Source: a virus
Lineage: Duplodnaviria; Heunggongvirae; Uroviricota; Caudoviricetes
IMG/VR virus record: IMGVR_UViG_2778261454_000012
DNA length: 11,516 bases
Direction: 5' to 3' (one strand)
The notes below the pieces were generated by a model. It ran no database searches. It saw nothing but the letters and a program-made list of their open reading frames with translations, and was not told the DNA's origin. Position numbers and translations under genes: made by a program. This document shows, piece after piece, positions 1 through 11,516 of the stretch (position 1 is the stretch's first letter; the number at the start of each line of letters is the position of its first letter).

Positions 1-443
1 TGAAACGTAAAACACTGCCTCTGCTGGCGCTGGTTGCCACCACTCTGTTTCTCATCGCATGCGATGACAGAAGTGATGACCTGAAGGCCATCAGTAAATT
101 TAAGGACCTCACCCCACCGCGTTTCAGTGATGTGGTCAGCCACCAGGATGATGTCAGCGAAGAATGGTCACAGGTTGACTACTTATCCGGTCCCACCTTG
201 CAGGTTTTACGTACCCGCCAGTCGCCCGATGGCTGCGAGGATGGCAGTTACTACTACCTCGTGGATATGCAGGAAAAAACCGTCCAGCCACTGATGAATG
301 CGCTGTGTATTGCCGATAACATCAAACTGGAATACCAGGAGGTGACGGACCCGTATACCAAAGAAAAATACTTTGAGTACGCCCATGACGGCAAACTGAT
401 GGGGCGACTGCTGATACCCTCAAACCCTGACAATCAGGAATAA
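1..443 (+). CDS. yafY: Inner-membrane lipoprotein, YafY/YfjS family (5' partial: window starts at the 2nd base of the ATG)
   Basis: Frame from position 3 reads KRKTLPLLALVATTLFLIAC-DD and continues into track ORF 132..443. Lipobox LIAC with Asp at +2 is the inner-membrane retention signal (established for YafY/YfjS). Position upstream of the ykfB-ykfF-yafX block matches CP4-6 gene order from memory. Confidence 0.6.
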   Translation, partial: KRKTLPLLALVATTLFLIACDDRSDDLKAISKFKDLTPPRFSDVVSHQDDVSEEWSQVDYLSGPTLQVLRTRQSPDGCEDGSYYYLVDMQEKTVQPLMNALCIADNIKLEYQEVTDPYTKEKYFEYAHDGKLMGRLLIPSNPDNQE

Positions 444-465
444 AACAACGATAAAGGAGACAAGA

Positions 466-933
466 ATGACAATACTTTCACTAAGTCGGTTTATGCTGGC
501 GGGTGTACTGCTCGCGAGCTTTAATGCCTCTGCTATCCCGGGGTTCTGGCAGCAGGGTTACGGTCAGGGCAATACGGAATACAGCGTGACCGAAGCCAGC
601 GGAAAGACGTTTACCATCAACTGCACAGGGAACCCGGACCAGAATGGTTTCTATCAGCATTCAGTCTTTCTTACCCTTGCCGATGACAAGATGGTCAGTT
701 CGCACGATGACGACACTACTATCACCGTAGTGATGGATCACCAGCAGTACATTATTCCGTCCAGCCTGGGCTGGCGTAACGGCGATAACGCCTGGTTTGA
801 CTTCATCAGCAATATCTCTGAGGCCGGGCAGTTCGACGTCTACGTCAATGACCACAAAGCAGGGACCTTCACTGCGGACCGGAAGAACGCTGAGAAAGTT
901 CTGTCCACTCTCGGAGACTGCAGCAACGACTGA
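466..933 (+). CDS. Secreted/periplasmic protein with N-terminal signal peptide (YkfB-like by position)
   Basis: 155-aa ORF. AAGGAG at 454-459, 6 nt before the ATG. N-terminus [23 protein letters not shown] is hydrophobic and signal-peptide-like. Followed by hairpin terminator at 960-994. Confidence 0.6.
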
Positions 934-959
934 TAGTAGCATCTTCCCCAGCAAATCCA

Positions 960-994
960 CCCCGACAGCTAGCAGGCTGCCGGGGTTTTCTTTT
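960..994 (+). terminator. Rho-independent terminator-like hairpin
   Basis: ccccgacagc / gctgccgggg stem (9 of 10 bp) with 6-nt loop, followed by ttttctttt. Confidence 0.5.
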
Positions 995-1009
995 ATCAGG
1001 AGCCCGAAA

Positions 1010-1249
1010 ATGACCCAATCCGTGTTGCTGCCACCGGGGCCTTTCACCCGGAGACAAGCGCAAGCGGTCACTACCACGTACAGCAATATCACACTCGAAG
1101 ACGACCAGGGCAGTCACTTCCGTCTGGTGGTTCGTGATACTGAAGGCCGGATGGTCTGGCGGGCATGGAACTTTGAGCCGGATGCCGGTGAAGGTCTTAA
1201 CCGCTATATCCGCACCTCAGGCATCCGTACAGACACGGCCACCCGCTGA
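1010..1249 (+). CDS. ykfF: DUF905-family small protein (YkfF-like), 79 aa
   Basis: Internal ATG at 1010 preceded by AGGAG (998-1002). Product [20 protein letters not shown]... is 79 aa; the longer track ORF 797..1249 overlaps the upstream gene and is rejected. Gene order matches CP4-6. Confidence 0.6.
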
Positions 1250-1302
1250 TCGCGAAGCATTTACCCGCATTCACCTCCCCGAACACACTTTATATCCCCA
1301 TA

Positions 1303-1328
1303 CGCCAGCCATCGCCGCTGGCGTTTTT
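1303..1328 (+). terminator. Rho-independent terminator-like hairpin
   Basis: cgccagc / gctggcg 7-bp stem, 7-nt loop, then ttttt. Confidence 0.5.
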
Positions 1329-1346
1329 ATTGACGGAGACATACCC

Positions 1347-1805
1347 ATGATAACACAGACGCAGCACGACCTCGCACCCGCTAACCAACCCGAATTTGAA
1401 CTGACCGTCACGCCGGTCCCCGATGAACAGCGTATCGATTTCTGGCCACAGTACTTTGGCGCTATCCCGCAGTGGCTACTCCTGGAGCCGCATATCTTCG
1501 CCTGGATGGACCGCTTCTGTGAGGGCTACAGCGGTGGTATCTGGTCGTTCTACACCCTCAGCAATGGCGGCGCATTTATGTCCCCCGAGCCTGACAACGA
1601 TGAGACATGGCGTCTGTTTAACTGCCTGAACGGTAACGATGCCCAAATGAGTGCAGAAGCAGCAGGTATTGCTGTCTGCCTGATTGCGTATAGCCACCAT
1701 GCCTGCCGTACAGAATGTGACGCGATGACCGCACACTATTACCGCCTGCGGGAGTATGCCATGCAACATCCAGAGGCTCACGCCATTCTGCGTATTATCG
1801 ACTGA
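1347..1805 (+). CDS. yafX: Antirestriction protein, ArdB/KlcA-like (YafX/YfjX/YeeS-type), 152 aa
   Basis: ATG at 1347 with GGAGA 7 nt upstream. Product MITQTQHDLAPANQPEFELTV...EAHAILRIID matches the conserved CP4-type antirestriction protein from memory. The track ORF 1134..1805 N-terminal extension is rejected. Confidence 0.7.
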   Translation: MITQTQHDLAPANQPEFELTVTPVPDEQRIDFWPQYFGAIPQWLLLEPHIFAWMDRFCEGYSGGIWSFYTLSNGGAFMSPEPDNDETWRLFNCLNGNDAQMSAEAAGIAVCLIAYSHHACRTECDAMTAHYYRLREYAMQHPEAHAILRIID

Positions 1806-1820
1806 CCGAAGGAGCAACAG

Positions 1821-2297
1821 ATGAAACAGCTTTCCTTTTTACCCGGCGAGATGACGCCACAGGACCGGCGTCTCATTCAGCGGGCGCTCAGGGCTCTGGA
1901 CCGCCACCTGCATGAGCCCGGCGTAGCCTTCACCTCTACCCACGCCGTACGTGAATGGCTGCGACTGCATATGGCCGCGCTTGAGCGGGAAGAGTTCCGG
2001 GTGTTGTATCTGGACAACCAGAATCAGTTGATTGCCCATGAAACGCTCTTCACCGGCACGATTAACCGCACCGAGGTGCATCCCCGGGAGGTGGTCAAAC
2101 GTGCTCTGCACTTCAACGCGGCGGCGGTGATACTCGCGCATAACCATCCTTCCGGCGAGACGACACCTAGCCAGGCCGACAAAACCCTCACGCAGCGACT
2201 GGTTCAGGTGCTTCAGCTGGTGGATATCCGTGTCCCTGACCATCTGATTGTCGGTGGCAGGCAAATCTATTCGTTCGCAGAACACGGTCTGCTTTGA
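1821..2297 (+). CDS. ykfG: RadC-like JAB-domain protein (YkfG/YfjY/YeeS family), 158 aa
   Basis: AAGGAG RBS before ATG 1821. Contains the JAMM-like motif region ...AAAVILAHNHPSGETTPSQAD... (HNHPSG is the RadC/JAB signature). Confidence 0.75.
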   Translation: MKQLSFLPGEMTPQDRRLIQRALRALDRHLHEPGVAFTSTHAVREWLRLHMAALEREEFRVLYLDNQNQLIAHETLFTGTINRTEVHPREVVKRALHFNAAAVILAHNHPSGETTPSQADKTLTQRLVQVLQLVDIRVPDHLIVGGRQIYSFAEHGLL

Positions 2298-2305
2298 GGT
2301 ATTAC

Positions 2306-2527
2306 ATGAAAATTATCAGTAAACGCAGGGCAATGACGATATACCGCCAGCATCCTGAGTCCCGAATCTTTCGCTACTGCACCGGCAAATACCAGTGGCA
2401 CGGTAGCGTCTGTCATTACACCGGCAGGGACGTTCCGGATATCGCCGGAGTCCTCGCGGTATACGCCGAACGCCGCCAGGACCGCAATGGGCCCTATACC
2501 TGCCTGATGAGCATCACCCTGAACTGA
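2306..2527 (+). CDS. ykfH: DUF987-family small protein (YkfH/YeeT/YfjZ-neighbour type), 73 aa
   Basis: Internal ATG at 2306 gives MKIISKRRAMTIYRQHPESRIFRYCTGKYQWHG..., 73 aa, with GAGG upstream. Conserved partner immediately upstream of the CbeA-type antitoxin. Confidence 0.6.
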   Translation: MKIISKRRAMTIYRQHPESRIFRYCTGKYQWHGSVCHYTGRDVPDIAGVLAVYAERRQDRNGPYTCLMSITLN

Positions 2528-2545
2528 CAATAGTGGAGAACTGTA

Positions 2546-3225
<680 letters not shown>

Positions 3226-3290
3226 ACATTGCGTACAACCTTCCCGATTTACATTTCTGAACTTCCTCCCTTGTTTACCTATTGCGTAAT

Positions 3291-3326
3291 GCGCCTGCTA
3301 CTACCCGGCAGGCGCGTTATCTTTTT
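3291..3326 (+). terminator. Rho-independent terminator downstream of the toxin gene
   Basis: gcgcctgc / gcaggcgc perfect 8-bp stem, 9-nt loop, followed by gttatcttttt. Confidence 0.6.
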
Positions 3327-3596
3327 ACGGACAAACAATCATGCAACCAGAAGTTGAAGTATTAACCGATCATAATGAGCTAATTTGTTCGAGCTTTATT
3401 GAACACATTGCCAACACATTAAATTTAGGAGTGGTGTACAACTAAACCTGCAGCCAAGGATGTATAGTGAGCGAAGCCCTATCAGGCCTTTTTGGTCAGT
3501 AGATAAGATTGATCTTCGTTGATAGAATTTACTTACACCAGCTGTTACATTAAGATAATTTTTTGGTGGGAGAATGATAAGATCTTACGTAACAAT

Positions 3597-3652
3597 TTGA
3601 TTTTAATGGTGCCGATAATAGGAGTCGAACCTACGACCTTCGCATTACGAAT
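3597..3652 (-). repeat. att-type direct repeat: partial copy of the thrW 3' part (46 nt of tRNA from the anticodon loop to CCA, plus 10 bp of flank)
   Basis: 3597-3652 matches 10063-10118 with one mismatch (3604 t vs 10070 a). Identity stops exactly at attacgaat (anticodon loop). Sequence diverges on both sides. Confidence 0.85.
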
Positions 3653-3843
3653 CTGTAGCACCAATCATAACTATCTGTTTTAGCAAGCATTAACCGCATT
3701 CACTAAGCTATAGTTGATGGCACAAACAGAAAGTTGATGCATGATGTTGTCATGTATATGTCACAAATACGGCACAACGATCTTCAAACATGTAGCCACA
3801 CATCCACAGAAGAGCACAAAGCCTTGCAATCCAGTGCAACGCT

Positions 3844-4071
3844 TTGTGTACCATAGTTTTTCCTTATCAACTACCGCAAGTATCGATCGATGGAGGCTTG
3901 GATGTTAAATTTCATGACTTTGATCACTTGGTGCATCACGAAACTATCGAAGTGCAACTCGCTCATGCCAACGGCGGATCTGTGCGTGGGATTTACAACC
4001 ATGCTCAGTATCTCGATAAGCGCAGAGAAATGATGCAGTGGTGGGCGGATTGGATTGATGAGAAGGCGTGA
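3844..4071 (+). pseudogene. C-terminal fragment of a P4-family tyrosine integrase (remnant)
   Basis: Translation ...KFHDFDHLVHHETIEVQLAHANGGSVRGIYNHAQYLDKRREMMQWWADWIDEKA carries the P4-type C-terminal signature (E-x-x-LAH...VRG-x-YN-x-x-Y...RR-x-MMQ-x-WAD). The frame is open only from 3796 (TAG at 3793-3795); track start is a TTG. The N-terminal ~300 aa are absent. Confidence 0.6.
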
Positions 4072-4165
4072 TGCTTTCCATCTTTCCATTCGGATTCCTC
4101 CTACCAGGCTTGCCGGTATGGTGATATAGTTAATGTTTTACTTTTTATAGTTTATAGATAAACAG

Positions 4166-5215
4166 ATGAAAAATAATAGCATCCAGATAGCAAGGGCGAT
4201 TGCCGCGTTACTTGTAGTGTTTCACCATTTGTTTATACCAATATTCCATAGAGATAATGCCTACACAGATTATCTGAAGCATTTTAATTTTAGCTTCATC
4301 GGTGATTATGCCGTTTATGTTTTTTTCTGTATAAGCGGTTACGTAATGATGATGTCAACGACAAAAAAGCATAAAGGATCGATATCTTTCCTGAGTGACA
4401 GAATATTAAGAATCTATCCTTCGTATATTATATGGACAGTTATCGCCATTGCTTTAGTATACATTGGCAGAGTAATTGGCTATGAAATTGTTAGATTTAA
4501 AAATATTCCTCATAATGTTGTGGATATGATTCAGGTATTGCTTTTGTTGCCTTCTATTTCTGACCACAGCAACTACGCCATGACTTTGCCAACAGCATGG
4601 TCACTTGTGTATGAAATGTATTACTACGTTGTATTTGCTCTATTACTTAAATTTATTAGTGTTCGTAATATCCCGTATGCTCTCATGGGTATATTTGCTT
4701 TATCTTCGTTTGTTATTAACTCAAACTTCCCTCAGGGTAGGTACGGTTGGGTGAATTTATGGTACATTATTGGGGACTATGCGAATATATGTTTTGCATC
4801 GGGGGCGCTGATATATAACATAACAAACAACATCAATAATCCAATAAAATACAAACACCTCCCAATTGCGATTGTATTATTATTTGCGGTATTGCTATCT
4901 TCCAATAACGGCTCACTATACCAAATAAATATAATCATGATGTCAATTACAACGTTCATTTTATTTCTTTTTAGTGACTTTGGGAGTGGTGTGCTTTCTA
5001 GATGTTTTTCATATATCGGTGATGCATCGTATAGTATATACATAACCCACATGCTATTTAATTTAGCGGCTTGGAATTCTTGGACTCAGTATAGCAGTTT
5101 GGTTGGTGCCTTTGGAATTTCTATAACATCAATAGTATTTGGGATTATAGCTTACGAATTCCTTGAAAAACCATTAACGATGGCGTCCAGAACTTTAAAG
5201 CAAAGAGTTGCTTAA
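4166..5215 (+). CDS. Acyltransferase-3 family integral membrane protein, O-antigen/LPS O-acetyltransferase-like (Oac/OafA-type)
   Basis: 349 aa, many hydrophobic segments. N-terminal IARAIAALLVVFHH and RILRIYPSYIIW motifs are typical of the AT3 family. Strongly AT-rich. Convergent with the tailspike-like gene, next to the att repeat, as in Sf6-type conversion modules. Confidence 0.7.
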   Translation: MKNNSIQIARAIAALLVVFHHLFIPIFHRDNAYTDYLKHFNFSFIGDYAVYVFFCISGYVMMMSTTKKHKGSISFLSDRILRIYPSYIIWTVIAIALVYIGRVIGYEIVRFKNIPHNVVDMIQVLLLLPSISDHSNYAMTLPTAWSLVYEMYYYVVFALLLKFISVRNIPYALMGIFALSSFVINSNFPQGRYGWVNLWYIIGDYANICFASGALIYNITNNINNPIKYKHLPIAIVLLFAVLLSSNNGSLYQINIIMMSITTFILFLFSDFGSGVLSRCFSYIGDASYSIYITHMLFNLAAWNSWTQYSSLVGAFGISITSIVFGIIAYEFLEKPLTMASRTLKQRVA

Positions 5216-5218
5216 GAT

Positions 5219-5240
5219 AAAGGGCGCAAACGCGCCCTTT
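5219..5240. terminator. Bidirectional rho-independent terminator between the convergent genes
   Basis: aaagggcgc / gcgcccttt perfect 9-bp stem with aaac loop, A-run on the left and tttattattt on the right. Confidence 0.75.
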
Positions 5241-5245
5241 ATTAT

Positions 5246-7210
5246 TTAGGGGTTTCTGACCTGCCATACTTTGTCATAGCCGTGCGTATACCCACATCGT
5301 GTAACGGTTAGGTGTACTATTGCCATTGATAGAGTAGGCGTATCAAACCGGAAGCGAATATACGTCCCTCCGTTTACTACCTGCTTTACAACGTTAATTC
5401 CTGTTAGATTTTTGTCTCCTGGATCATAATTTGTCCATATATTGCCTGCTGAGGATATATCTGATTGCGTTGTACCAGAAACAGTTGCCAGAATCCTGCC
5501 ACCGGAACCTGATGATGTAACCCCGGATTTTCCAACAGGAAAAATGATTGCTTCCACGCATAAAAAATTCCCGCCAGGCGTCTTGGTTTCCTCCCCCACT
5601 GCGGTAAGGAAAACATCAAGTGATGCACCATATGGAACGATAACCGTCCCCTTGTCTGTAGATACATTGTTAAAAACAGCATTACTGTTGTAGTTTACTG
5701 CCGAAAGAACAGCCCCAATTCTGTTATTAGATATGCTATTTGAGGATTCAGTTCCGTACCACCTTCCATTTATTTTTACGCTTTGCGCCTTGGTAGAGTT
5801 CATTTTAGATGCAGTTACCGAGCTAACAAATCTAAATGTATCCTTGATCTCAAAACCACGGCATTGATTAATGTTGCTGTCGTTGCTATTGACAAAGAAC
5901 TGTACCGCCCTATCGGTCTTTATCATCCCTGTTTGGAATACTGCCATTCCTAATACGTTTGTTGCATTGTCAGGAGTTTTAACCACGGATGTTACTGTTG
6001 AGTCTCGTGTAGTCTGAATCCAACAATCAACAGCATCAAAATATATAGCAGATCGTTCAGTTTCAGCAAATGGTGAGAAATCAAATAACGTATCACCCCT
6101 AACCCCTTCAATACCTAATCCAGTTATTTTTAAATCTCTCCCCCTGTAAAATTTGTGTGGGGTAATACACATATCTGCGGCAATATTATTTGCCGCAACG
6201 TACATCAATACCTCATCATCTGAGAATGCGGGAATTTTTGATACCCTATCATAGGTTGCTCCCCAACAAAAACCGACTCCGCATCTTAATGCCCACGCAG
6301 CTGATAGATTTATAGATGTTGCAACTAGGGTCATGCCAAAGTTGCATGAATACATGAATACTCTGTCGCTTTCAGATACGAAACATGACAATGCCAGACC
6401 AACATTGTATCTCATGAGGTTTACATTGTTTATTTTATATTGCTGCCCACCTCCGGAAGGTTGCCCTAACTCTGAGTTACCTGAAATTACTAGAGGGCAG
6501 CCAACAGTTTCCTCATCGGCATTAACAAAGCCAATGTTTTCAACCAATAATTCATGACACCATGTTGCACAGAAGAAACCGCCGTCTCCGGATGTGTATA
6601 TTACTGAGTGGAGCGGGTTTGTGCCGAAAATATTTAACGAGTACCCATCCCATCTTTTCGCAGTAATATCAATTGAGGTATCGCCAATATACATAGGGCT
6701 ATCAATAAAGATTGGCATGTATGTATTATAGGCCGCAATCAATGCTGCGCTGTCGTTTGTTACCCCAGTCAGGTCAGGCCTAGGCATATCCGTGTCGTGA
6801 TTAATATCATGAACATCAACTTTTGGCGCATCCATCCACGCGCCAAACATACGAGGTGTTACGTACCCCTTCCCTTGCAGATCTCGTTTCCAGCGTTTAC
6901 CACCCGCAGTGACAATGACCATGCCGTTATCATCTGCAGAAGTCGAATCTGTGAAATCGGCCACAAACAGACCACCACCAGTATCACCTGATACTGTCGG
7001 CTTCATGCCTGTAGTGTGGAAGTCGACGAAAATCTTTTGCTGATCTCGCTCAGGCTCAATTGTCCTTAACATTGCTATATCAGGGCATGTCCCGATGTAT
7101 TTAAGACCGTCTTCATTGCCGTCCCATAAAGGAGGTGATGCGGATGTTTTTCTTTTATCGCTACTTGTAACATCAGGAATAGCGATTACTTCTATTGTTG
7201 TTTTCTTCAA
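5246..7210 (-). CDS. Tailspike-like right-handed beta-helix protein (putative polysaccharide depolymerase/receptor-binding protein), 654 aa; start uncertain
   Basis: Long clean ORF. Around residues 115-150, GYVTPRMFGA...LTGVTNDSAALIAAYN resembles the pectate-lyase-fold entry motif (FGA...G-x-TDD-x-AA). Many Asn/Gly-rich repeats downstream. Position and orientation match a P22/Sf6 tailspike. The only start at the ORF head is TTG at 7208-7210, with no Shine-Dalgarno and a stop just upstream. Confidence 0.5.
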   Translation of the reverse strand: MKKTTIEVIAIPDVTSSDKRKTSASPPLWDGNEDGLKYIGTCPDIAMLRTIEPERDQQKIFVDFHTTGMKPTVSGDTGGGLFVADFTDSTSADDNGMVIVTAGGKRWKRDLQGKGYVTPRMFGAWMDAPKVDVHDINHDTDMPRPDLTGVTNDSAALIAAYNTYMPIFIDSPMYIGDTSIDITAKRWDGYSLNIFGTNPLHSVIYTSGDGGFFCATWCHELLVENIGFVNADEETVGCPLVISGNSELGQPSGGGQQYKINNVNLMRYNVGLALSCFVSESDRVFMYSCNFGMTLVATSINLSAAWALRCGVGFCWGATYDRVSKIPAFSDDEVLMYVAANNIAADMCITPHKFYRGRDLKITGLGIEGVRGDTLFDFSPFAETERSAIYFDAVDCWIQTTRDSTVTSVVKTPDNATNVLGMAVFQTGMIKTDRAVQFFVNSNDSNINQCRGFEIKDTFRFVSSVTASKMNSTKAQSVKINGRWYGTESSNSISNNRIGAVLSAVNYNSNAVFNNVSTDKGTVIVPYGASLDVFLTAVGEETKTPGGNFLCVEAIIFPVGKSGVTSSGSGGRILATVSGTTQSDISSAGNIWTNYDPGDKNLTGINVVKQVVNGGTYIRFRFDTPTLSMAIVHLTVTRCGYTHGYDKVWQVRNP

Positions 7211-7290
7211 TTATTTCGACTGGCTGAAAATCTGGCTTGCTCCAAAACTTTACCTTATCGAATATGCAGCATCATTGGTTAAGTAATTTC

Positions 7291-7316
7291 AGGCCGCATA
7301 GTCGGCCTTCATTTTT
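7291..7316 (+). terminator. Terminator-like hairpin (plus orientation) in the junction region
   Basis: aggccg / cggcct 6-bp stem, 6-nt loop catagt, then tcattttt. Confidence 0.4.
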
Positions 7317-7345
7317 GGCATAAACAACAGAATAAACACTGCACT

Positions 7346-7373
7346 GTGTATTCATTCCAACGAGTGAATACAC
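7346..7373. promoter_or_regulatory. Perfect 9-bp inverted repeat (gtgtattca N10 tgaatacac), candidate operator or RNA hairpin
   Basis: Read directly: 7346-7354 is the reverse complement of 7365-7373. Lies about 100 bp upstream of the ATG at 7475. Confidence 0.35.
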
Positions 7374-7474
7374 GGAGCAATGTCGCTCGTAACTAAACAG
7401 GAGCCGACTTGTTCTGATTATTGGAAATCTTCTTTGCCCTCCAGTGTGAGGTCAATTTTTTTGACGGAGGATAT

Positions 7475-8443
7475 ATGAGTGAAGTAACAGATTTAGTTGT
7501 TATTGAAAAAGCAAATGCAATGACTGTATTTCAGTCTGCCGACCAGATTGAAGAAATCCTTCAAAAGGTTGAACGTGAAGTTATGTCCTTTGTGCCTGAT
7601 ATCACAACGGCAAAGGGCAGAAAGGAGATCGCTTCTCTGGCGTATAAAGTTGCGCAGACGAAAACATATCTCGATGGCCTTGGCAAAGACCTTGTTGCTG
7701 AACTGAAGGAAATTCCAAAGCTAATTGATGCCAACCGCAAGACAGTACGCGATCGCCTTGATGAACTGAAAGCCAAGGCGCGCCAGCCTCTTACTGATTA
7801 TGAGGAAGAACAGGCGCGGATTAAAGCCGAAGAAGAAGCTAAGGCAGCAGCTGAAGCTCTCGCAAAGCAAATTGAGTCTGACCATGAAATAGCGATTTTG
7901 ATGGATCGCGAATTTGACCGCCAAAGAGAAGAGGCAAGACTCAAAGCGGAGCAGGAAAAGCGAGAGCATGAAGAACGCTTAAAAAGAGAAGCTGAAGAGA
8001 AAGCCAGAGCAGAAGCCGAAGCAAAGGCAAAAGCCGAAATTGAAGCAGCAGCAAGGCGAGAAGCAGAAGCTAAGGCAGCAGCGGAACGTGCAGAGCGTGA
8101 ACGCATTGAAGCTGAGCAACGAGCACAGCGCGAAGCAAAAGAGGCAGCAGAACGAGCTGAAAGAGAAAAGCAGGCGGCAATTGAAGCAGAACGCCGAAAA
8201 GCACAGGAGGAGGCTGAACGAATCCGGCGCGAGGCTGAAGCAAAAGAGCAAGCCAGAATAGCAGAAGAAAAAAGAATCAAGGACGAAGAAGAGCGTAGAG
8301 CAAAGGATAAAGCTCACCGGAAAGAAGTAAATAACAAAATACTTGCTGACCTTATCAAGGTTGGCGCATCAGAAGATGTTGCTAAAAATATCATAACAGC
8401 CATCGTAAAAGGCGAAGTATTCGCAACAAAAATAACCTACTAA
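7475..8443 (+). CDS. Phage early-region protein with a long ER/K-rich charged alpha-helical (coiled-coil or single-alpha-helix) segment, 322 aa
   Basis: ATG at 7475 with GGAGG (7466-7470). N-terminal domain MSEVTDLVVIEK...; central ~150 aa is almost only E/A/K/R/Q in heptad-like repeats (AEEKARAEAEAKAKAEIEAAARREAEAKAAAERAERER...); short C-terminal domain. The upstream 18 codons of track ORF 7421 begin with TTG and are rejected. Confidence 0.65.
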   Translation: MSEVTDLVVIEKANAMTVFQSADQIEEILQKVEREVMSFVPDITTAKGRKEIASLAYKVAQTKTYLDGLGKDLVAELKEIPKLIDANRKTVRDRLDELKAKARQPLTDYEEEQARIKAEEEAKAAAEALAKQIESDHEIAILMDREFDRQREEARLKAEQEKREHEERLKREAEEKARAEAEAKAKAEIEAAARREAEAKAAAERAERERIEAEQRAQREAKEAAERAEREKQAAIEAERRKAQEEAERIRREAEAKEQARIAEEKRIKDEEERRAKDKAHRKEVNNKILADLIKVGASEDVAKNIITAIVKGEVFATKITY

Positions 8444-8467
8444 TAAAACCAACATAAGGAACCACCC

Positions 8468-8599
8468 ATGATTCACGCAATCGCGGGAGGCGCTCGCATG
8501 GGTGCCTTCCAACTAAATGAATCTTTACTTGAACGAATCACCCGTAAATTACGTGACGGATGGAAAAGAGTTGAGGTCTTATTATGCGCAATGAAATAG
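8468..8599 (+). CDS. Small hypothetical early protein, 43 aa
   Basis: ATG at 8468 with AAGGA 8 nt upstream. MIHAIAGGARMGAFQLNESLLERITRKLRDGWKRVEVLLCAMK. Overlaps the next ORF. Confidence 0.35.
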   Translation: MIHAIAGGARMGAFQLNESLLERITRKLRDGWKRVEVLLCAMK

Positions 8600-8736
8600 C
8601 CATCAATCACCAGATGCTTCGTGCAGCACAGAACAAAGCAGTAATAGCCAGATTTATTGGTGATTCAAAAATGTGGATTGAAGCAAATAAAGCGATGAAA
8701 TCAGCTATCAACCTTCCGTGGTATCGCAGGAAATGA
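8584..8736 (+). CDS. Small hypothetical early protein, 50 aa
   Basis: ATG at 8584 with GAGG upstream. MRNEIAINHQMLRAAQNKAVIARFIGDSKMWIEANKAMKSAINLPWYRRK. Stop overlaps the next start (ATGA). Confidence 0.4.
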   Translation: MRNEIAINHQMLRAAQNKAVIARFIGDSKMWIEANKAMKSAINLPWYRRK

Positions 8737-8891
8737 GTTTTACAGATAACTGGTCAGACGAAGAATTCATTCGTCAGATGAAAGAATTAATCGGTAACGA
8801 AGGAGATATTCATGTCACTTGCAACCACAGTGAAGGAGAGCAAGTTACAGAGACGCATGTACACGCAGAAAGCTCTCTGGTATCGCCATAA
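8733..8891 (+). CDS. Small hypothetical early protein, 52 aa, acidic
   Basis: ATGA overlap with the preceding ORF (translational coupling). MSFTDNWSDEEFIRQMKELIGNEGDIHVTCNHSEGEQ.... Overlaps the 8812 ORF in another frame, so one of the two may be spurious. Confidence 0.3.
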   Translation: MSFTDNWSDEEFIRQMKELIGNEGDIHVTCNHSEGEQVTETHVHAESSLVSP

Positions 8892-8982
8892 TGGCGACCG
8901 CGAAGGAATGCGGGTATGCCTTAATTTGTCCCGAGTCGAAGTATTAAATCAGCGTTATTTCCTTGGGCCGTGTCCATTCTGA
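8812..8982 (+). CDS. Small hypothetical early protein, 56 aa
   Basis: ATG at 8812 with AGGAG 6 nt upstream. MSLATTVKESKLQRRMYTQKALWYRHNGDREGMRVCLNLSRVEVLNQRYFLGPCPF. Ends 8 nt before the next gene. Confidence 0.45.
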   Translation: MSLATTVKESKLQRRMYTQKALWYRHNGDREGMRVCLNLSRVEVLNQRYFLGPCPF

Positions 8983-8990
8983 GGTGAATT

Positions 8991-9698
8991 ATGGATTTGA
9001 ACAAATTCGATGAGCCATTCAGCCCTGAAGATATCGAATGGCGAATACAGCAAAGCGGTAAAACACGCGATGGCAAGGTGTGGGCTATGGTGCTGGCTTA
9101 TGTCACGAACAGGGCAATCATGAAACGCCTGGACGATGTTTGCGGCAAAGCAGGATGGCGCAATGAATACCGCGATATTCCCAACAACGGCGGCGTTGAA
9201 TGCGGCATATCAATCAGGATTGATTCCGAATGGGTAACCAAATGGGATGCTGCTGAAAACACGCAGGTAGAAGCCGTCAAAGGTGGTCGTTCCGGTGCAA
9301 TGAAGCGCGCTGCCGTTCAGTGGGGAATCGGTCGGTATCTGTATAACATTGAGGAAGGTTTCGCACAAACATCTCTCGATAAAAAGCAGGGATGGCACAG
9401 GGCAAAACTCAAGGATGGAACAGGATTTTACTGGCTCCCTCCATCGCTGCCGGGATGGGCAATCCCAGCATCAGATAACAAACCATCACCAGAAAATACC
9501 AACCAGAAATCTCCATCGGTTGACTGCGAGCAAATCCTGAAAGACTTCAGCGATTATGCGTCAACAGAAACTGACAAGAAAAAACTCATCGAGCGTTATC
9601 AGCGTGACTGGCAATTAATGGCTGGCAACGAGGAGGCGCAGGCTAAATGCGTTCAGGTAATGAACATCAGAGTTAACGAACTAAAACAGGCGGCATAA
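8991..9698 (+). CDS. Single-strand annealing protein, Rad52/Rad22 (Sak-like) family, 235 aa
   Basis: GAGGTG RBS. Contains ...GVECGISIRIDSEW...KGGRSGAMKRAAVQWGIGRYLYN..., the Rad52/22-type GIGRYLY signature. Followed directly (TAAATG) by an ssb start. Confidence 0.7.
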   Translation: MDLNKFDEPFSPEDIEWRIQQSGKTRDGKVWAMVLAYVTNRAIMKRLDDVCGKAGWRNEYRDIPNNGGVECGISIRIDSEWVTKWDAAENTQVEAVKGGRSGAMKRAAVQWGIGRYLYNIEEGFAQTSLDKKQGWHRAKLKDGTGFYWLPPSLPGWAIPASDNKPSPENTNQKSPSVDCEQILKDFSDYASTETDKKKLIERYQRDWQLMAGNEEAQAKCVQVMNIRVNELKQAA

Positions 9699-10058
9699 AT
9701 GGCAAGCAGAGGCGTAAATAAGGTGATTATCCTTGGTCGGGTAGGACAAGACCCGGAAGTTCGATACTCACCATCAGGAACAGCGTTCGCTAAGGGAGCG
9801 TTAAAGCGGGCAGGCATTAGCAACTTCCGCTTCCATGATCTGAGGCATACCTGGGCAAGCTGGCTGGTTCAGTCCGGTGTCTCTCTTCTTGCACTTAAAG
9901 AGATGGGAGGATGGGAAACTCTCGAAATGGTTCAAAGATACGCCCACCTTTCAGCCGGGCATCTCACCGAGCACGCAAGCAAAATCGATGCGATTATAAG
10001 TCGCAATGGCACAAATACGGCACAAGAGGAGAACGTGGTTTACTTAAATGCTAGGTAA
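9699..10058 (+). pseudogene. In-frame chimera: SSB N-terminus (about 29 aa) fused to C-terminal catalytic segment of a tyrosine integrase (about 90 aa)
   Basis: [29 protein letters not shown] is the canonical SSB N-terminus. From about codon 30 the product reads ...[48 protein letters not shown]..., the box II region (H-x-x-R ... Y) of phage integrases. Ends 14 bp before the thrW 3' end, convergent with it. Confidence 0.75.
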
Positions 10059-10072
10059 CTTATTGATTTAAA

Positions 10073-10148
10073 TGGTGCCGATAATAGGAGTCGAACCTAC
10101 GACCTTCGCATTACGAATGCGCTGCTCTACCAACTGAGCTATATCGGC
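10073..10148 (-). tRNA. thrW: tRNA-Thr (anticodon CGU)
   Basis: Reverse complement reads GCCGATATAGCTCAGTTGGTAGAGCAGCGCATTCGTAATGCGAAGGTCGTAGGTTCGACTCCTATTATCGGCACCA, 76 nt. It has the D-arm GCTCAGTTGGTAGAGC, anticodon loop with CGT, T-arm GGTTCGACTCC and encoded CCA. Confidence 0.95.
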
Positions 10149-10262
10149 CCTGAAAGGACATGTTCACGAACGTGAATCACGGTGGACAAGGTTAAAACTA
10201 ACCGGGCGATGCGTCAATGGCCTTGTGAATCAAATGGCTACTTTTGCATCACCCGGTTTTAT

Positions 10263-11516
10263 TTACGCACGAATGGTGTAATCACCAATGCCGATCCACT
10301 TGTAAGTGGTCAGTGCTTCCAGCCCCATTGGGCCACGCGCGTGGAGTTTTTGTGTGCTTACCGCCACTTCCGCACCCAGACCAAACTGGCCGCCGTCGGT
10401 AAAACGCGTAGAGGCGTTAACGTAAACAGCGGACGAATCCACTTCGTTAACAAAACGCTGGGCGTTGCGCATATCGCGGGTCAGGATCGCATCGGAGTGT
10501 TGTGTGCCGTGTTCACGAATATGGGCGATGGCATCGTCAAGATCGCTGACGATTTTGACGTTCAAATCTAATGACAGAAACTCATCGTCATACTCTTCGG
10601 CTTTAACAGCAACCACCTTCGCAGGGCCTGCCTGCAACTGCGCCAGTGCAGCTGCATCTGCGTGTAATGTCACGCCGCTTTCCGCCATTTGTTTGCTTAA
10701 TGCGGGCAGGAAGCTATCGGCGATGTTTTTATTCACCAGCAACGTTTCAACCGTATTACATGTGCTCGGACGCTGAGTTTTCGCGTTGACGATCACTTTT
10801 AATGCTTCAGCGATCTCTACACTTTCATCAACGTAAATATGGCATACGCCTATACCACCTGTGATCACCGGGATTGTCGACTGTTCACGGCACAGTTTAT
10901 GCAAACCAGCGCCACCACGCGGGATCAGCATGTCGATGTATTTATCCATACGCAGCATTTCACTGACCAGCGCACGGTCAGGATTATCAATCGCCTGCAC
11001 GGCACCCGCCGGTAAGCCGCAGGATTTCAGGGCGTCCTGAATCACCGCCACCGTTGCAGCGTTAGTGCGACACGTTTCTTTGCCACCGCGCAGGATCACC
11101 GCATTACCGGTTTTCAGGCACAGCGAAGCGACATCAACCGTCACGTTCGGGCGCGCTTCATAAATCACGCCAATAACCCCCAGCGGTACGCGACGACGCT
11201 CAAGACGCAGGCCGCTGTCCAGTACGCCGCCATCGATTACCTGCCCCACCGGATCGGCGAGGTTGCACACCTGACGTACATCGTCGGCAATGCCTTTCAG
11301 CCGTGCGGGCGTCAGTGCCAGACGGTCAAGCATCGCTTCGCTAAGGCCATTGGCTCGCGCGTCAGCAACATCCTGGGCGTTAGCGTTGAGGATGATTTCG
11401 CTTTGTGCTTCCAGTTCATCGGCGATTTTTTCCAGCACGCGATTTTTTTCGCGGCTGGAGAGTTGCGCTAATTTATACGAGGCTTGCTTCGCGGCAATGC
11501 CCATTTGTTCCAGCAT
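10263..11516 (-). CDS. proA: Gamma-glutamyl phosphate reductase (proline biosynthesis), 417 aa, complete
   Basis: Translation [38 protein letters not shown]...[12 protein letters not shown] matches E. coli ProA in full. Start codon is the last three bases of the window. Confidence 0.97.

Follow-up and report, generated by a model that had tools for sequence, protein, structure and literature searches.

The window (the whole 11,516-nt stretch of DNA analysed) contains four small ORFs on the plus strand, which together cover positions 8468–8982. The initial annotation had listed the same four overlapping frames and had compared them with the lambdoid kil/gam/anti-defence zone, upstream of a recombination module; both points agree with our results, which place the ORFs in a lambdoid early-left (PL) zone, the next gene being that of an Erf-like protein. 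The ORFs and their surroundings are presented in Table 1. ORF1 and ORF2 overlap by 16 nt, ORF2 and ORF3 by 4 nt (ATGA, 8733–8736) and ORF3 and ORF4 by 80 nt; 8 nt separate the stop of ORF4 from the ATG of erf at 8991. ORF3 is given from its ATG; in the mechanical ORF list it starts at a GTG at 8718 and has 57 aa. The translational-coupling geometry which had been described for the four ORFs, with the ATGA junction as an example, is found also in P22, lambda and HK620. Concerning the Shine-Dalgarno (SD) sequences, two good ones had been reported; good ones do exist, but three are usable, those of cIII, kil and ORF4. Their best SD:anti-SD duplexes reach -6.2, -6.3 and -8.8 kcal/mol, respectively, with a spacing of 5–6 nt (AAGGA for cIII; AAGGAG for ORF4, the strongest of the set). 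The duplex of ORF3 reaches just -4.3 kcal/mol with zero spacing, and ORF3 therefore relies on the ATGA coupling.

Short ORFs are uninformative by themselves, since the window contains 122 ORFs of at least 30 aa. The evidence beyond chance for the four ORFs is homology together with frame-specific purifying selection. Their proteins are 98–100% identical to the products of Sf6 genes 32, 31, 30 and 29, and the DNA is 98% identical to phages Sf6 and IME10 across positions 7400–9793. The segment is very probably the cIII–kil–gp30–gp29 part of the PL operon of an Sf6/HK97-type lambdoid phage, which encodes four genuine proteins and now lies in a remnant at thrW. All four genes are already catalogued in Sf6/HK97-type phages and represent known biology; the proteins had been called unannotatable, but ORF1 and ORF2 belong to Pfam families, and all four are annotated in Sf6 (gp32–gp29) and its relatives.

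Table 1. Coordinates of the four ORFs and of the features around them in the window.
Feature	Position	Strand	Basis
att direct repeat, 67 nt, left copy (partial thrW copy)	3586..3652	.	Repeat search
Terminator-like hairpin with T-run, upstream of gp33	7291..7318	+	Terminator scan
Second terminator-like hairpin, homologous to Sf6-annotated tL2A	~7437-7462		Sf6 annotation mapped
Sf6 gp33-like coiled-coil protein, 322 aa, RefSeq 'TolA', precedes cIII	7475..8443	+	phrog_1376, E 2e-110
ORF1, cIII, 43 aa, ATG	8468..8599	+	Pfam/PHROG/lambda similarity
ORF2, kil, 50 aa, ATG	8584..8736	+	Pfam/PHROG/lambda similarity
ORF3, 52 aa from ATG, Sf6 gp30 / HK97 gp42.1 family	8733..8891	+	PHROG, selection
ORF4, 56 aa, ATG, Sf6 gp29 / HK97 gp42 / HK620 HkaM family	8812..8982	+	PHROG, selection, hhalign
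Rad52-like single-strand annealing protein, erf position, 235 aa, first gene of the Rec module	8991..9698	+	
In-frame fusion ORF: first ~31 codons of ssb and C-terminal ~88 codons of an integrase	9699..10058	+	
att direct repeat, right copy, overlapping intact tRNA-Thr (10073-10148)	10052-10118		

The four ORFs are contained in a twice-deleted 6.4-kb prophage remnant at thrW, bracketed by att repeats. The two copies of the repeat are 93% identical and spaced by 6466 nt, and the flanks outside them are contiguous in K-12. Homology to Sf6 is limited to positions 7213–9793; relative to Sf6, all that precedes the 3' end of gene 34 and all that follows codon 31 of ssb is lost. At the right-hand side, the fusion ORF contains the Pfam domains SSB (residues 6–32) and Phage_integrase (residues 30–86), and its integrase part is 100% identical to the thrW-adjacent integrases of E. 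coli EC596 and HS. This ssb'::int' fusion is a deletion scar which closes the PL operon fragment, and its integrase part is thrW-specific. The junction had no exact match in a search of one genome per species, and no complete E. coli genome spans it. Upstream of the four ORFs there is also a truncated tailspike gene in antisense orientation. The gp33-like gene differs from Sf6 gene 33 at 14 nt, every one of them synonymous; it also contains internal 37-nt repeats. The position of tL2A was obtained by transfer of the Sf6 annotation with an offset of 4399 nt.

In intact lambda and P22, transcription of this segment starts at PL, with antitermination by N. In the window PL, N and nutL are lost and the terminators upstream are kept, so the four genes are probably silent, unless read-through or a non-consensus promoter serves them. 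A consensus scan of positions 6900–10200 found no promoter-like site upstream of the four genes; its one consensus-like site, fewer than the 4.4 expected from shuffled sequence, lies inside ORF3 and is not regarded as a promoter. The Rfam scan of the window found tRNA-Thr alone.

ORF1 matches the Pfam model Lambda_CIII (PF02061) at residues 2–36 with 52.7 bits (cutoff 25.7), and phrog_550 with an E-value of 2.7e-19. It is 66% identical to residues 1–33 of lambda CIII, including ESLLERITRKLRDGWKR, which matches lambda exactly; R32 of lambda corresponds to R34 in ORF1. Residues 14–37 of lambda CIII, R32 among them, form the essential and sufficient region of this FtsH inhibitor, whose mechanism has been described (PMC1838920). 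In the equivalent region of ORF1 the last four positions differ (IDIL to EVLL). Judging from these similarities, ORF1 is a short Sf6-type CIII and a predicted inhibitor of the FtsH protease: its amphipathic helix would competitively inhibit host FtsH, by which CII would be stabilised and lysogeny favoured. As a lysogeny regulator, CIII does not belong to the anti-defence genes, one of the kinds which the initial annotation had suggested for such short proteins.

The suggestion that a host-division inhibitor might be present was borne out by ORF2, which covers all 31 positions of the Pfam model Lambda_Kil (PF06301) with 69.2 bits (cutoff 27.6) and matches phrog_2055 over its full length (E 3.6e-35). 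Its identity to lambda Kil is 57% across 30 aa. Also, kil directly follows cIII in both, with a 32-nt overlap in lambda. Lambda Kil prevents the FtsZ ring from assembling and makes cells filament (PMC3961180). ORF2 is classified by its similarity as a lambda/HK97-type Kil, a predicted inhibitor of FtsZ-ring assembly which would arrest division of the host.

ORF3 encodes an acidic protein (pI 4.4) and matches phrog_2123 at positions 1–52 of 52 with an E-value of 6.6e-42. Conservation of the individual frames, which had been proposed as the check on the four ORFs, was found for the first part of ORF3 and for ORF4 but not for the tail of ORF3. In codons 1–26 of ORF3 (8733–8810) pN/pS is 0.35 in frame vs 1.42 and 1.16 in the other two frames, both of which contain stops, and the selection has Fisher p-values of 0.0003–0.01 against three divergent lineages. 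The tail, which overlaps ORF4 (8811–8888), has a dN/dS of 1.4–2.1. Selection for an open ORF3 frame within the overlap was considered and rejected: 61–84% of synonymous recodings of ORF4 leave this frame open to at least 77 nt. Coding selection on ORF3 is confined to the first ~26 codons, and the tail is an unconstrained by-product of the ORF4 frame. AlphaFold2 predicts one helix (residues 9–20) with a mean pLDDT of 59, and the rest is largely disordered. Translation of ORF3 would start by termination–reinitiation at the ATGA junction, and its selected part would be the one helix in the first ~26 residues.

These properties of the tail, open as chance would have it, are also what would be seen if the segment had only three genes and ORF3 were a leader, translated or not, whose conservation reflects the ribosome-binding site of ORF4 and the stop of kil. 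The poor SD and low AlphaFold2 confidence of ORF3 point the same way, as do the changes within its clade, which are chiefly non-synonymous (11 vs 5 synonymous minor codons among close alleles). Several phage records, e.g. those of mEp234 and mEp043, leave ORF3 unannotated, and ORF4 is found without it in HK620 and in ~6 loci. We consider a three-gene segment unlikely, however, because in codons 1–26 pN/pS is below 1 solely in the ORF3 frame. The ATG and the ATGA junction of ORF3 are moreover retained whichever of three genes precedes them (kil, a 114-aa gene or another allele of cIII), and its N-terminal motif, [W/F]SDEEFI, recurs at the same position in P22 Arf.

ORF4 is basic (pI 10) and matches phrog_1723 over its full length (E 9.4e-36). 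It is under strong purifying selection: in codons 28–56 pN is 0.11–0.15 and pS is saturated (Fisher p 1e-13). Translation would start at its own strong SD within ORF3. The AlphaFold2 model (pLDDT 92) is a basic hairpin of two helices, 7–27 and 30–51. The C-terminus has the pattern FLG-x-x-PF; in the family alignment F50, P55 and F56 are invariant, L51 and G52 are conserved in at least 90% of the sequences, and the codons of the motif vary synonymously. The members of the family have about 56–62 aa, form ~22 clusters at 50% identity and are found in HK97, HK022, Sf6 and H-19B/Stx phages as well as in phages of Erwinia, Enterobacter and Salmonella. A fold search with the ORF4 model in PDB and BFVD gave generic helical hairpins alone (E at least 0.2), and a sequence-profile search of PDB gave nothing below E 0.24. 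No credible larger protein containing the ORF4 domain was found in an exhaustive profile search. A few long matches to the profile are spread over multiple stretches and look like low-complexity sequence.

ORF3 and ORF4 are a co-inherited pair at the 5' boundary of the recombination module. Of 183 loci, about 177 have ORF3 alongside ORF4, the gene upstream of the pair varies as described above, and DNA homology to other phages starts exactly at the ATG of ORF3. A recombinase gene lies 1–16 nt downstream of the ORF4 family in 185 of 189 loci, and it belongs to one of three superfamilies: Rad52-like (75 loci), ERF (97) or AAA_24/Sak4-like (13). In the window it is the Rad52-like type; the product matches Pfam Rad52_Rad22 (PF04098, E 2.2e-25) and phrog_1097, 'Erf-like ssDNA annealing protein' (E 3e-129), and differs from Sf6 gp28 by 1 aa. 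Because the pair directly precedes recombinases of three unrelated superfamilies, we infer that it may have an accessory role in recombination or replication of the phage, as an analogue, by position, of P22 arf. Its partner would then be one common to all types, such as the SSB of host or phage or enzymes which dock on SSB, and not one specific recombinase. The linkage to recombinases could also simply arise because the cIII–kil module ends with this pair. Counted by a strict C-terminal pattern among closely related loci, 105 of 171 have an ORF with an SSB-like acidic tail ending in ...IPF no more than 2.6 kb downstream; in at least some of the others the SSB has an extended C-terminus.

Neither ORF3 nor ORF4 has a match in Pfam or NCBIfam, and neither resembles a recombinase or annealing-protein family or fold. 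The PHROG label 'recombinase' of phrog_2123 and phrog_1723 is without support and looks positional; it probably descends from the naming of HK620 hkaM as 'arf' by position (PMC5928155). A better label for the gp30 and gp29 families is 'unknown function, Rec-module associated'.

The position of the pair between kil and the annealing protein is the gam slot, and zones of this kind are rich in host-takeover genes; ORF3, moreover, is small and acidic, as are many DNA-mimic inhibitors. The initial annotation had looked to anti-restriction or anti-RecBCD functions, and ORF3 and ORF4 might be anti-defence or anti-nuclease genes. We regard this as rather improbable. The two proteins have no similarity to Gam, Abc2, Ral or Ocr/Ard, or to PADLOC, Pfam or NCBIfam models (PADLOC and NCBIfam searches gave no meaningful matches for any of the four ORFs), and the fold searches with ORF4, which gave the generic helical hairpins described above, are uninformative. 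In intact relatives (Sf6, mEp043 and the Stx1a phage) a separate abc2 is already present a few genes downstream.

A single 82-aa protein made from ORF3 and ORF4 by programmed +1 frameshifting inside the 80-nt overlap is highly improbable: several database proteins of 81–82 aa do combine the N-terminus of ORF3 with the C-terminus of ORF4, but they are rare (1–4 sequences per cluster, vs hundreds of members for the unfused forms), they switch frame after differing residues (26, 29, 35, 44, 47, 49 or 51), third-frame products such as random indels would give occur as well, no shift-prone site was seen in the overlap by eye, and ORF4 has a better SD than any other ORF of the region and exists without ORF3.

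For the annotation of the window these results carry little weight, as the genes are catalogued lambdoid genes, near-identical to those of Sf6, in a dead prophage. The lead which comes from ORF4 is its C-terminus, where the ...PF resembles the tip of SSB; this is the one point worth testing. The C-termini of host and phage SSBs read ...DIPF, ...SIPF or ...YPPF, and ExoI, RecQ, RecJ, PriA and others dock at this tip. The Sak4 of HK620 also needs the tip of the SSB cognate to it (PMC5928155). That the ORF4 family is a phage-made mimic or binder of the SSB tip is a long shot. A mimic or competitor of this kind would be usable whatever the recombinase family, and the occurrence of ORF4 before Rad52-like, ERF and Sak4 proteins would thereby be explained; the acidic, co-inherited ORF3 could then be its partner or regulator. 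With its place directly before recombinases of three superfamilies and its conserved ...PF end, the ORF4 family is a concrete candidate for a part in the 'accessory' layer of phage recombination.

Concerning known phage systems, HkaM of HK620 (NP_112046), which is encoded upstream of sak4, takes the same position as ORF4. Its gene was first named arf from this position, and Hutinet et al. 2018 called the protein an orphan (PMC5928155). Profile comparison by hhalign (98.6% probability, E 7e-16, 59 columns) indicates that HkaM is not an orphan and belongs to the ORF4/gp29/gp42 family. Its gene overlaps kil by 4 nt and its C-terminus ends in ...PF as that of ORF4, with S in place of G52; HK620 lacks ORF3. 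The whole HK620 module with hkaM gives the same oligonucleotide recombineering as sak4 and ssb alone (PMC5928155), and the ORF4-family protein is thus dispensable in that assay.

In P22 the genes c3–kil–arf–erf have the same operon position and packing as those of the window (overlaps of 20 nt for c3/kil, 11 nt for kil/arf and 4 nt for arf/erf), although the P22 'kil' is a different protein from the Kil of the window. P22 Arf was reportedly described as an accessory recombination function by Poteete et al. in 1991, and it has been without a mechanism since. Like ORF3, Arf is small, acidic and encoded between kil and the recombinase. It helps Erf recombination and is non-essential (PMC12315714). 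Homology of either ORF to Arf was considered but is not supported. ORF4 has no similarity to it, and ORF3, which shares the N-terminal motif alone, has no match to the Pfam model of Arf (PF17585) at E up to 0.1; the similarity of ORF3 to phrog_2445 (Arf; E 0.037 over 22 residues) and that found by hhalign (6.6% probability, P 0.0055, 17 columns) are not significant.

The closest system is that of Sf6 (NC_005344), the genome of which is said to have been reported by Casjens et al. in 2004. Its genes 32 (cIII), 31 (kil), 30 and 29 have the same order, overlaps and sequence as the four ORFs; the proteins of the window differ from gp32, gp31, gp30 and gp29 by 1, 1, 0 and 0 residues, respectively, and the neighbouring genes for gp33 and Erf are common to both. 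Sf6, however, has a complete PL operon (PL, nutL, N, ral etc.), whereas the window contains a fragment. The equivalents in HK97 are cIII, kil, gp42.1 and gp42. The lambda genes cIII–kil–gam–bet, like those of P22, occupy the same operon position with the same packing, but lambda CIII has 54 aa vs 43 aa in the window. The slot before the annealing protein is thus filled by gam in lambda, by arf in P22 and by ORF3 and ORF4 in the window.

Based on the comparison with known phages, the four small ORFs of the plus strand (ORF1–ORF4, 8468–8982) lie in the cIII/kil zone of a lambdoid phage. The stretch 7400–9793 shares 98% identity with phages Sf6 and IME10, and some part of it has a match in 421 phage records. 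The Sf6 annotation numbers the four genes 32 (cIII), 31 (kil), 30 and 29, with gene 33 upstream and Erf and SSB downstream; ORF1 and ORF2 each differ from the Sf6 protein by one residue, ORF3 and ORF4 by none. In Pfam, ORF1 hits Lambda_CIII at 52.7 bits (cutoff 25.7); it is 66% identical to residues 1–33 of lambda CIII, including the core ESLLERITRKLRDGWKR, which falls within the 24-residue amphipathic region reported to be both necessary and sufficient to inhibit FtsH (PMC1838920). ORF2 matches Lambda_Kil (69.2 bits, cutoff 27.6), with 57% identity to lambda Kil across 30 residues; lambda Kil prevents FtsZ assembly, an effect that depends on ZipA (PMC3961180). Pfam and NCBIfam contain no family for ORF3 or ORF4; at full length, they belong to phrog_2123 (E 7e-42) and phrog_1723 (E 9e-36), respectively. 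The initial annotation is thus confirmed in its observation and partly right in its interpretation: the lambdoid kil-zone reading holds, and the proposed host-division inhibitor is found in one ORF, Kil, but ORF1 is CIII. The proteins are not unannotatable, as two are textbook genes and two belong to catalogued families, so the finding is already known.

The coordinates agree with those first assigned (Table), including the ATGA at 8733–8736. The overlaps are 16 nt (ORF1/ORF2), 4 nt (ORF2/ORF3, the ATGA) and 80 nt (ORF3/ORF4), and the ATG of the 235-aa ORF at 8991, which encodes a Rad52-like annealing protein (PF04098), lies 8 nt past the ORF4 stop. Since the window contains 122 ORFs of at least 30 aa, the bare presence of four small ORFs is no evidence. 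Good Shine–Dalgarno sequences had been noted for two ORFs; three have usable ones, with best duplexes of -6.2 (ORF1), -6.3 (ORF2) and -8.8 kcal/mol (ORF4) at a spacing of 5–6 nt, whereas that of ORF3 (AGGAA directly against the ATG, zero spacing) is weak at -4.3 kcal/mol. The upstream Sf6 gp33-like protein (322 aa) is coiled-coil, rich in Glu/Ala/Lys/Arg, named 'TolA' in RefSeq and without a family in the Pfam search; its gene has internal 37-nt repeats and 14 nt differences from Sf6, all 14 synonymous.

Table. Positions of the features in the window.
Feature	Position	Strand	Remarks
67-nt direct repeat	3586–3652 and 10052–10118		93% identical; exact 47-nt core is part of tRNA-Thr thrW
Integrase 3' fragment	within 3944–7114		in the insertion
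Acyl_transf_3 acyltransferase	4166–5215		intact; in O-antigen acetylase position
Tailspike gene	5246 to about 7114	-	5'-truncated; strand opposite to ORF1–ORF4
63-aa ORF	7095–7286	+	3' part from about 7126 matches Sf6 gene 34 end and other lambdoid prophages
PL-operon fragment	7213–9793 (Sf6 homology)		3' end of gene-34-like ORF to ssb codon 31
Sf6 gp33-like gene	7475–8443	+	322 aa
ORF1	8468–8599	+	43 aa
ORF2	8584–8736	+	50 aa
ORF3	8733–8891	+	52 aa counted from ATG; GTG 8718 start in mechanical ORF list
ORF4	8812–8982	+	56 aa
ssb/integrase chimeric ORF	9699–10058	+	Pfam SSB and Phage_integrase

About 190 related loci were gathered, and the window allele was compared with alleles of 67–75% DNA identity. 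Codons 28–56 of ORF4 show pN of 0.11–0.15 with pS saturated (Fisher p 1e-13), and codons 1–27, overlapped by ORF3, a dN/dS of 0.18–0.32; by these patterns ORF4 is clearly under purifying selection. Read in the ORF3 frame, the overlap gives a dN/dS of 1.4–2.1, so the ORF3 tail is not selected as protein. When ORF4 was recoded synonymously, the ORF3 frame stayed open to at least 77 nt in 61–84% of versions, so its openness across the overlap is the chance expectation. The 26 ORF3 codons preceding ORF4, on the other hand, evolve like coding sequence, with a pN/pS of 0.35 in the ORF3 frame versus 1.42 and 1.16 in the other two, each interrupted by stops; Fisher p is 0.0003–0.01 against three lineages. 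The AlphaFold2 models accord with this picture: ORF4 is modelled with confidence as a hairpin of two helices (7–27 and 30–51; pLDDT 92), ORF3 as a single helix at residues 9–20 with the rest of low confidence (mean pLDDT 59). Programmed frameshifting joining the two ORFs was rejected: fusions of 81–82 aa in public databases form rare clusters with the frame switch differently placed in each (82 aa: P0001, P0005, P0021, P0024, P0027, P0031, P0069; further examples of 70–73 aa: P0063, P0066, P0075), and are indel variants or errors. Many such one-off fusions, all produced by single-base indels inside the overlap, are present in public protein collections; overlapping reading frames thus inflate apparent protein diversity in assemblies.

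Of 183 informative loci, about 177 have ORF3 alongside ORF4. The gene upstream of ORF3 differs (kil as in the window, another allele of cIII or a gene of 114 aa), the ATGA junction is kept behind each upstream gene examined, and the ORF3 ATG is the exact start of DNA homology to many phages. The recombinase gene starts 1–16 nt past the ORF4 stop in 185/189 loci; three superfamilies are represented, Rad52-like in 75 loci, ERF PF04404 in 97 and AAA_24/Sak4-like in 13. With such varied neighbours, the ORF3–ORF4 pair is a mosaic unit, and by its placement marks the 5' edge of the recombination module whichever recombinase comes next.

The ORF4 family is small: an exhaustive profile search gave 22 clusters at 50% identity, with all credible members of 56–62 aa, and tblastn gave 69 phage records from phages of Escherichia, Shigella, Salmonella, Enterobacter, Klebsiella and Erwinia. 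Across members as distant as 38% identity, three residues never change (F50, P55 and F56, the last of the protein), while conservation at L51 and G52 is 90% or more. Among closer alleles the codons for this C-terminal motif show synonymous variation, which places the constraint on the protein. The two proteins differ in charge, with a pI of about 10 for the basic ORF4 and about 4.4 for the acidic ORF3. The SSBs of these modules carry ...DIPF, ...SIPF or ...YPPF at the C-terminus, and stimulation of Sak4 by the HK620 SSB requires the SSB tip (PMC5928155); the conserved ...PF end suggests ORF4 as a possible mimic of this tip or competitor with it. Nothing specific came out of fold and sequence searches of ORF4 against structures, whether solved or predicted. 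Some relatives have a phage SSB with a 17-residue extension after ...DFDDDIPF (IMG/VR contig L056, 3888–4403, versus Sf6, L001, 5300–6262), which makes the normally terminal tip internal. In its last 15 residues the extension is identical to the C-terminal end of gp26, the neighbour in Sf6, and the extended SSB is an apparent ssb::gp26 deletion fusion.

Concerning the context in the window, 1–3652 and 10052–11516 are contiguous in E. coli K-12 (CP4-6 genes, thrW, proA), and the 67-nt repeats bracket a 6.4-kb insertion (3653–10051) between CP4-6 and thrW/proA, a heavily deleted prophage at thrW. At the same site E. coli HS has a ~42-kb prophage with matching ends. The left part, 1–3225, contains the CP4-6 cryptic-prophage genes yafY', ykfB, ykfF, yafX (antirestriction), ykfG and ykfH and the YafW/YkfI type IV toxin–antitoxin pair, and is 99.7% identical to K-12. 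The integrase fragment, acyltransferase and tailspike are 99.7% identical to the P22-like argW prophage of E. coli mip270_04, so the remnant is mosaic with an argW-type phage. The 63-aa ORF, whose 5' part crosses the tailspike junction, probably represents the truncated remains of a gene-34-like ORF, not a gene. In the chimeric ORF the first ~31 ssb codons run in frame into the ~88 C-terminal codons of a thrW-specific tyrosine integrase; this deletion junction was found neither in 5,426 complete E. coli genomes nor in one genome per species. PL, nutL, N and everything from ssb to xis are absent from the remnant, gene 33 is preceded by two terminator-like hairpins, and a promoter scan found no promoter-like site upstream of the four genes. 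We infer that they are not expressed in the window, which agrees with a potentially toxic kil having been kept intact.

In P22, the slot held here by ORF3–ORF4 is occupied by arf, whose non-essential product helps Erf-mediated recombination by a mechanism not known (PMC12315714). ORF3 and P22 Arf share [W/F]SDEEFI at the same N-terminal position; ORF3 gave no match to PF17585 (Arf) in the Pfam search, only E 0.037 against phrog_2445 (Arf) and an hhalign probability of 6.6% against Arf, so the motif is a lead and not a sign of Arf membership. ORF4 is in the same family as HK620 HkaM (hhalign 98.6%, E 7e-16), which was named arf at first by position and later described as an orphan of unknown function; in HK620 oligonucleotide recombineering the whole module including hkaM was no better than sak4 plus ssb (PMC5928155). 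The value that remains lies in a corrected annotation, in placing HkaM within a larger family and in the conserved ...PF tail as a lead open to testing. Both phrog_2123 and phrog_1723 are labelled 'recombinase', a label spread to RefSeq entries of Sf6, HK97, HK620, mEp phages and others, and no support for it was found in sequence or predicted structure. Given the first name of HkaM, it looks like an inherited positional one, which probably stems from the naming of HK620 hkaM as arf.
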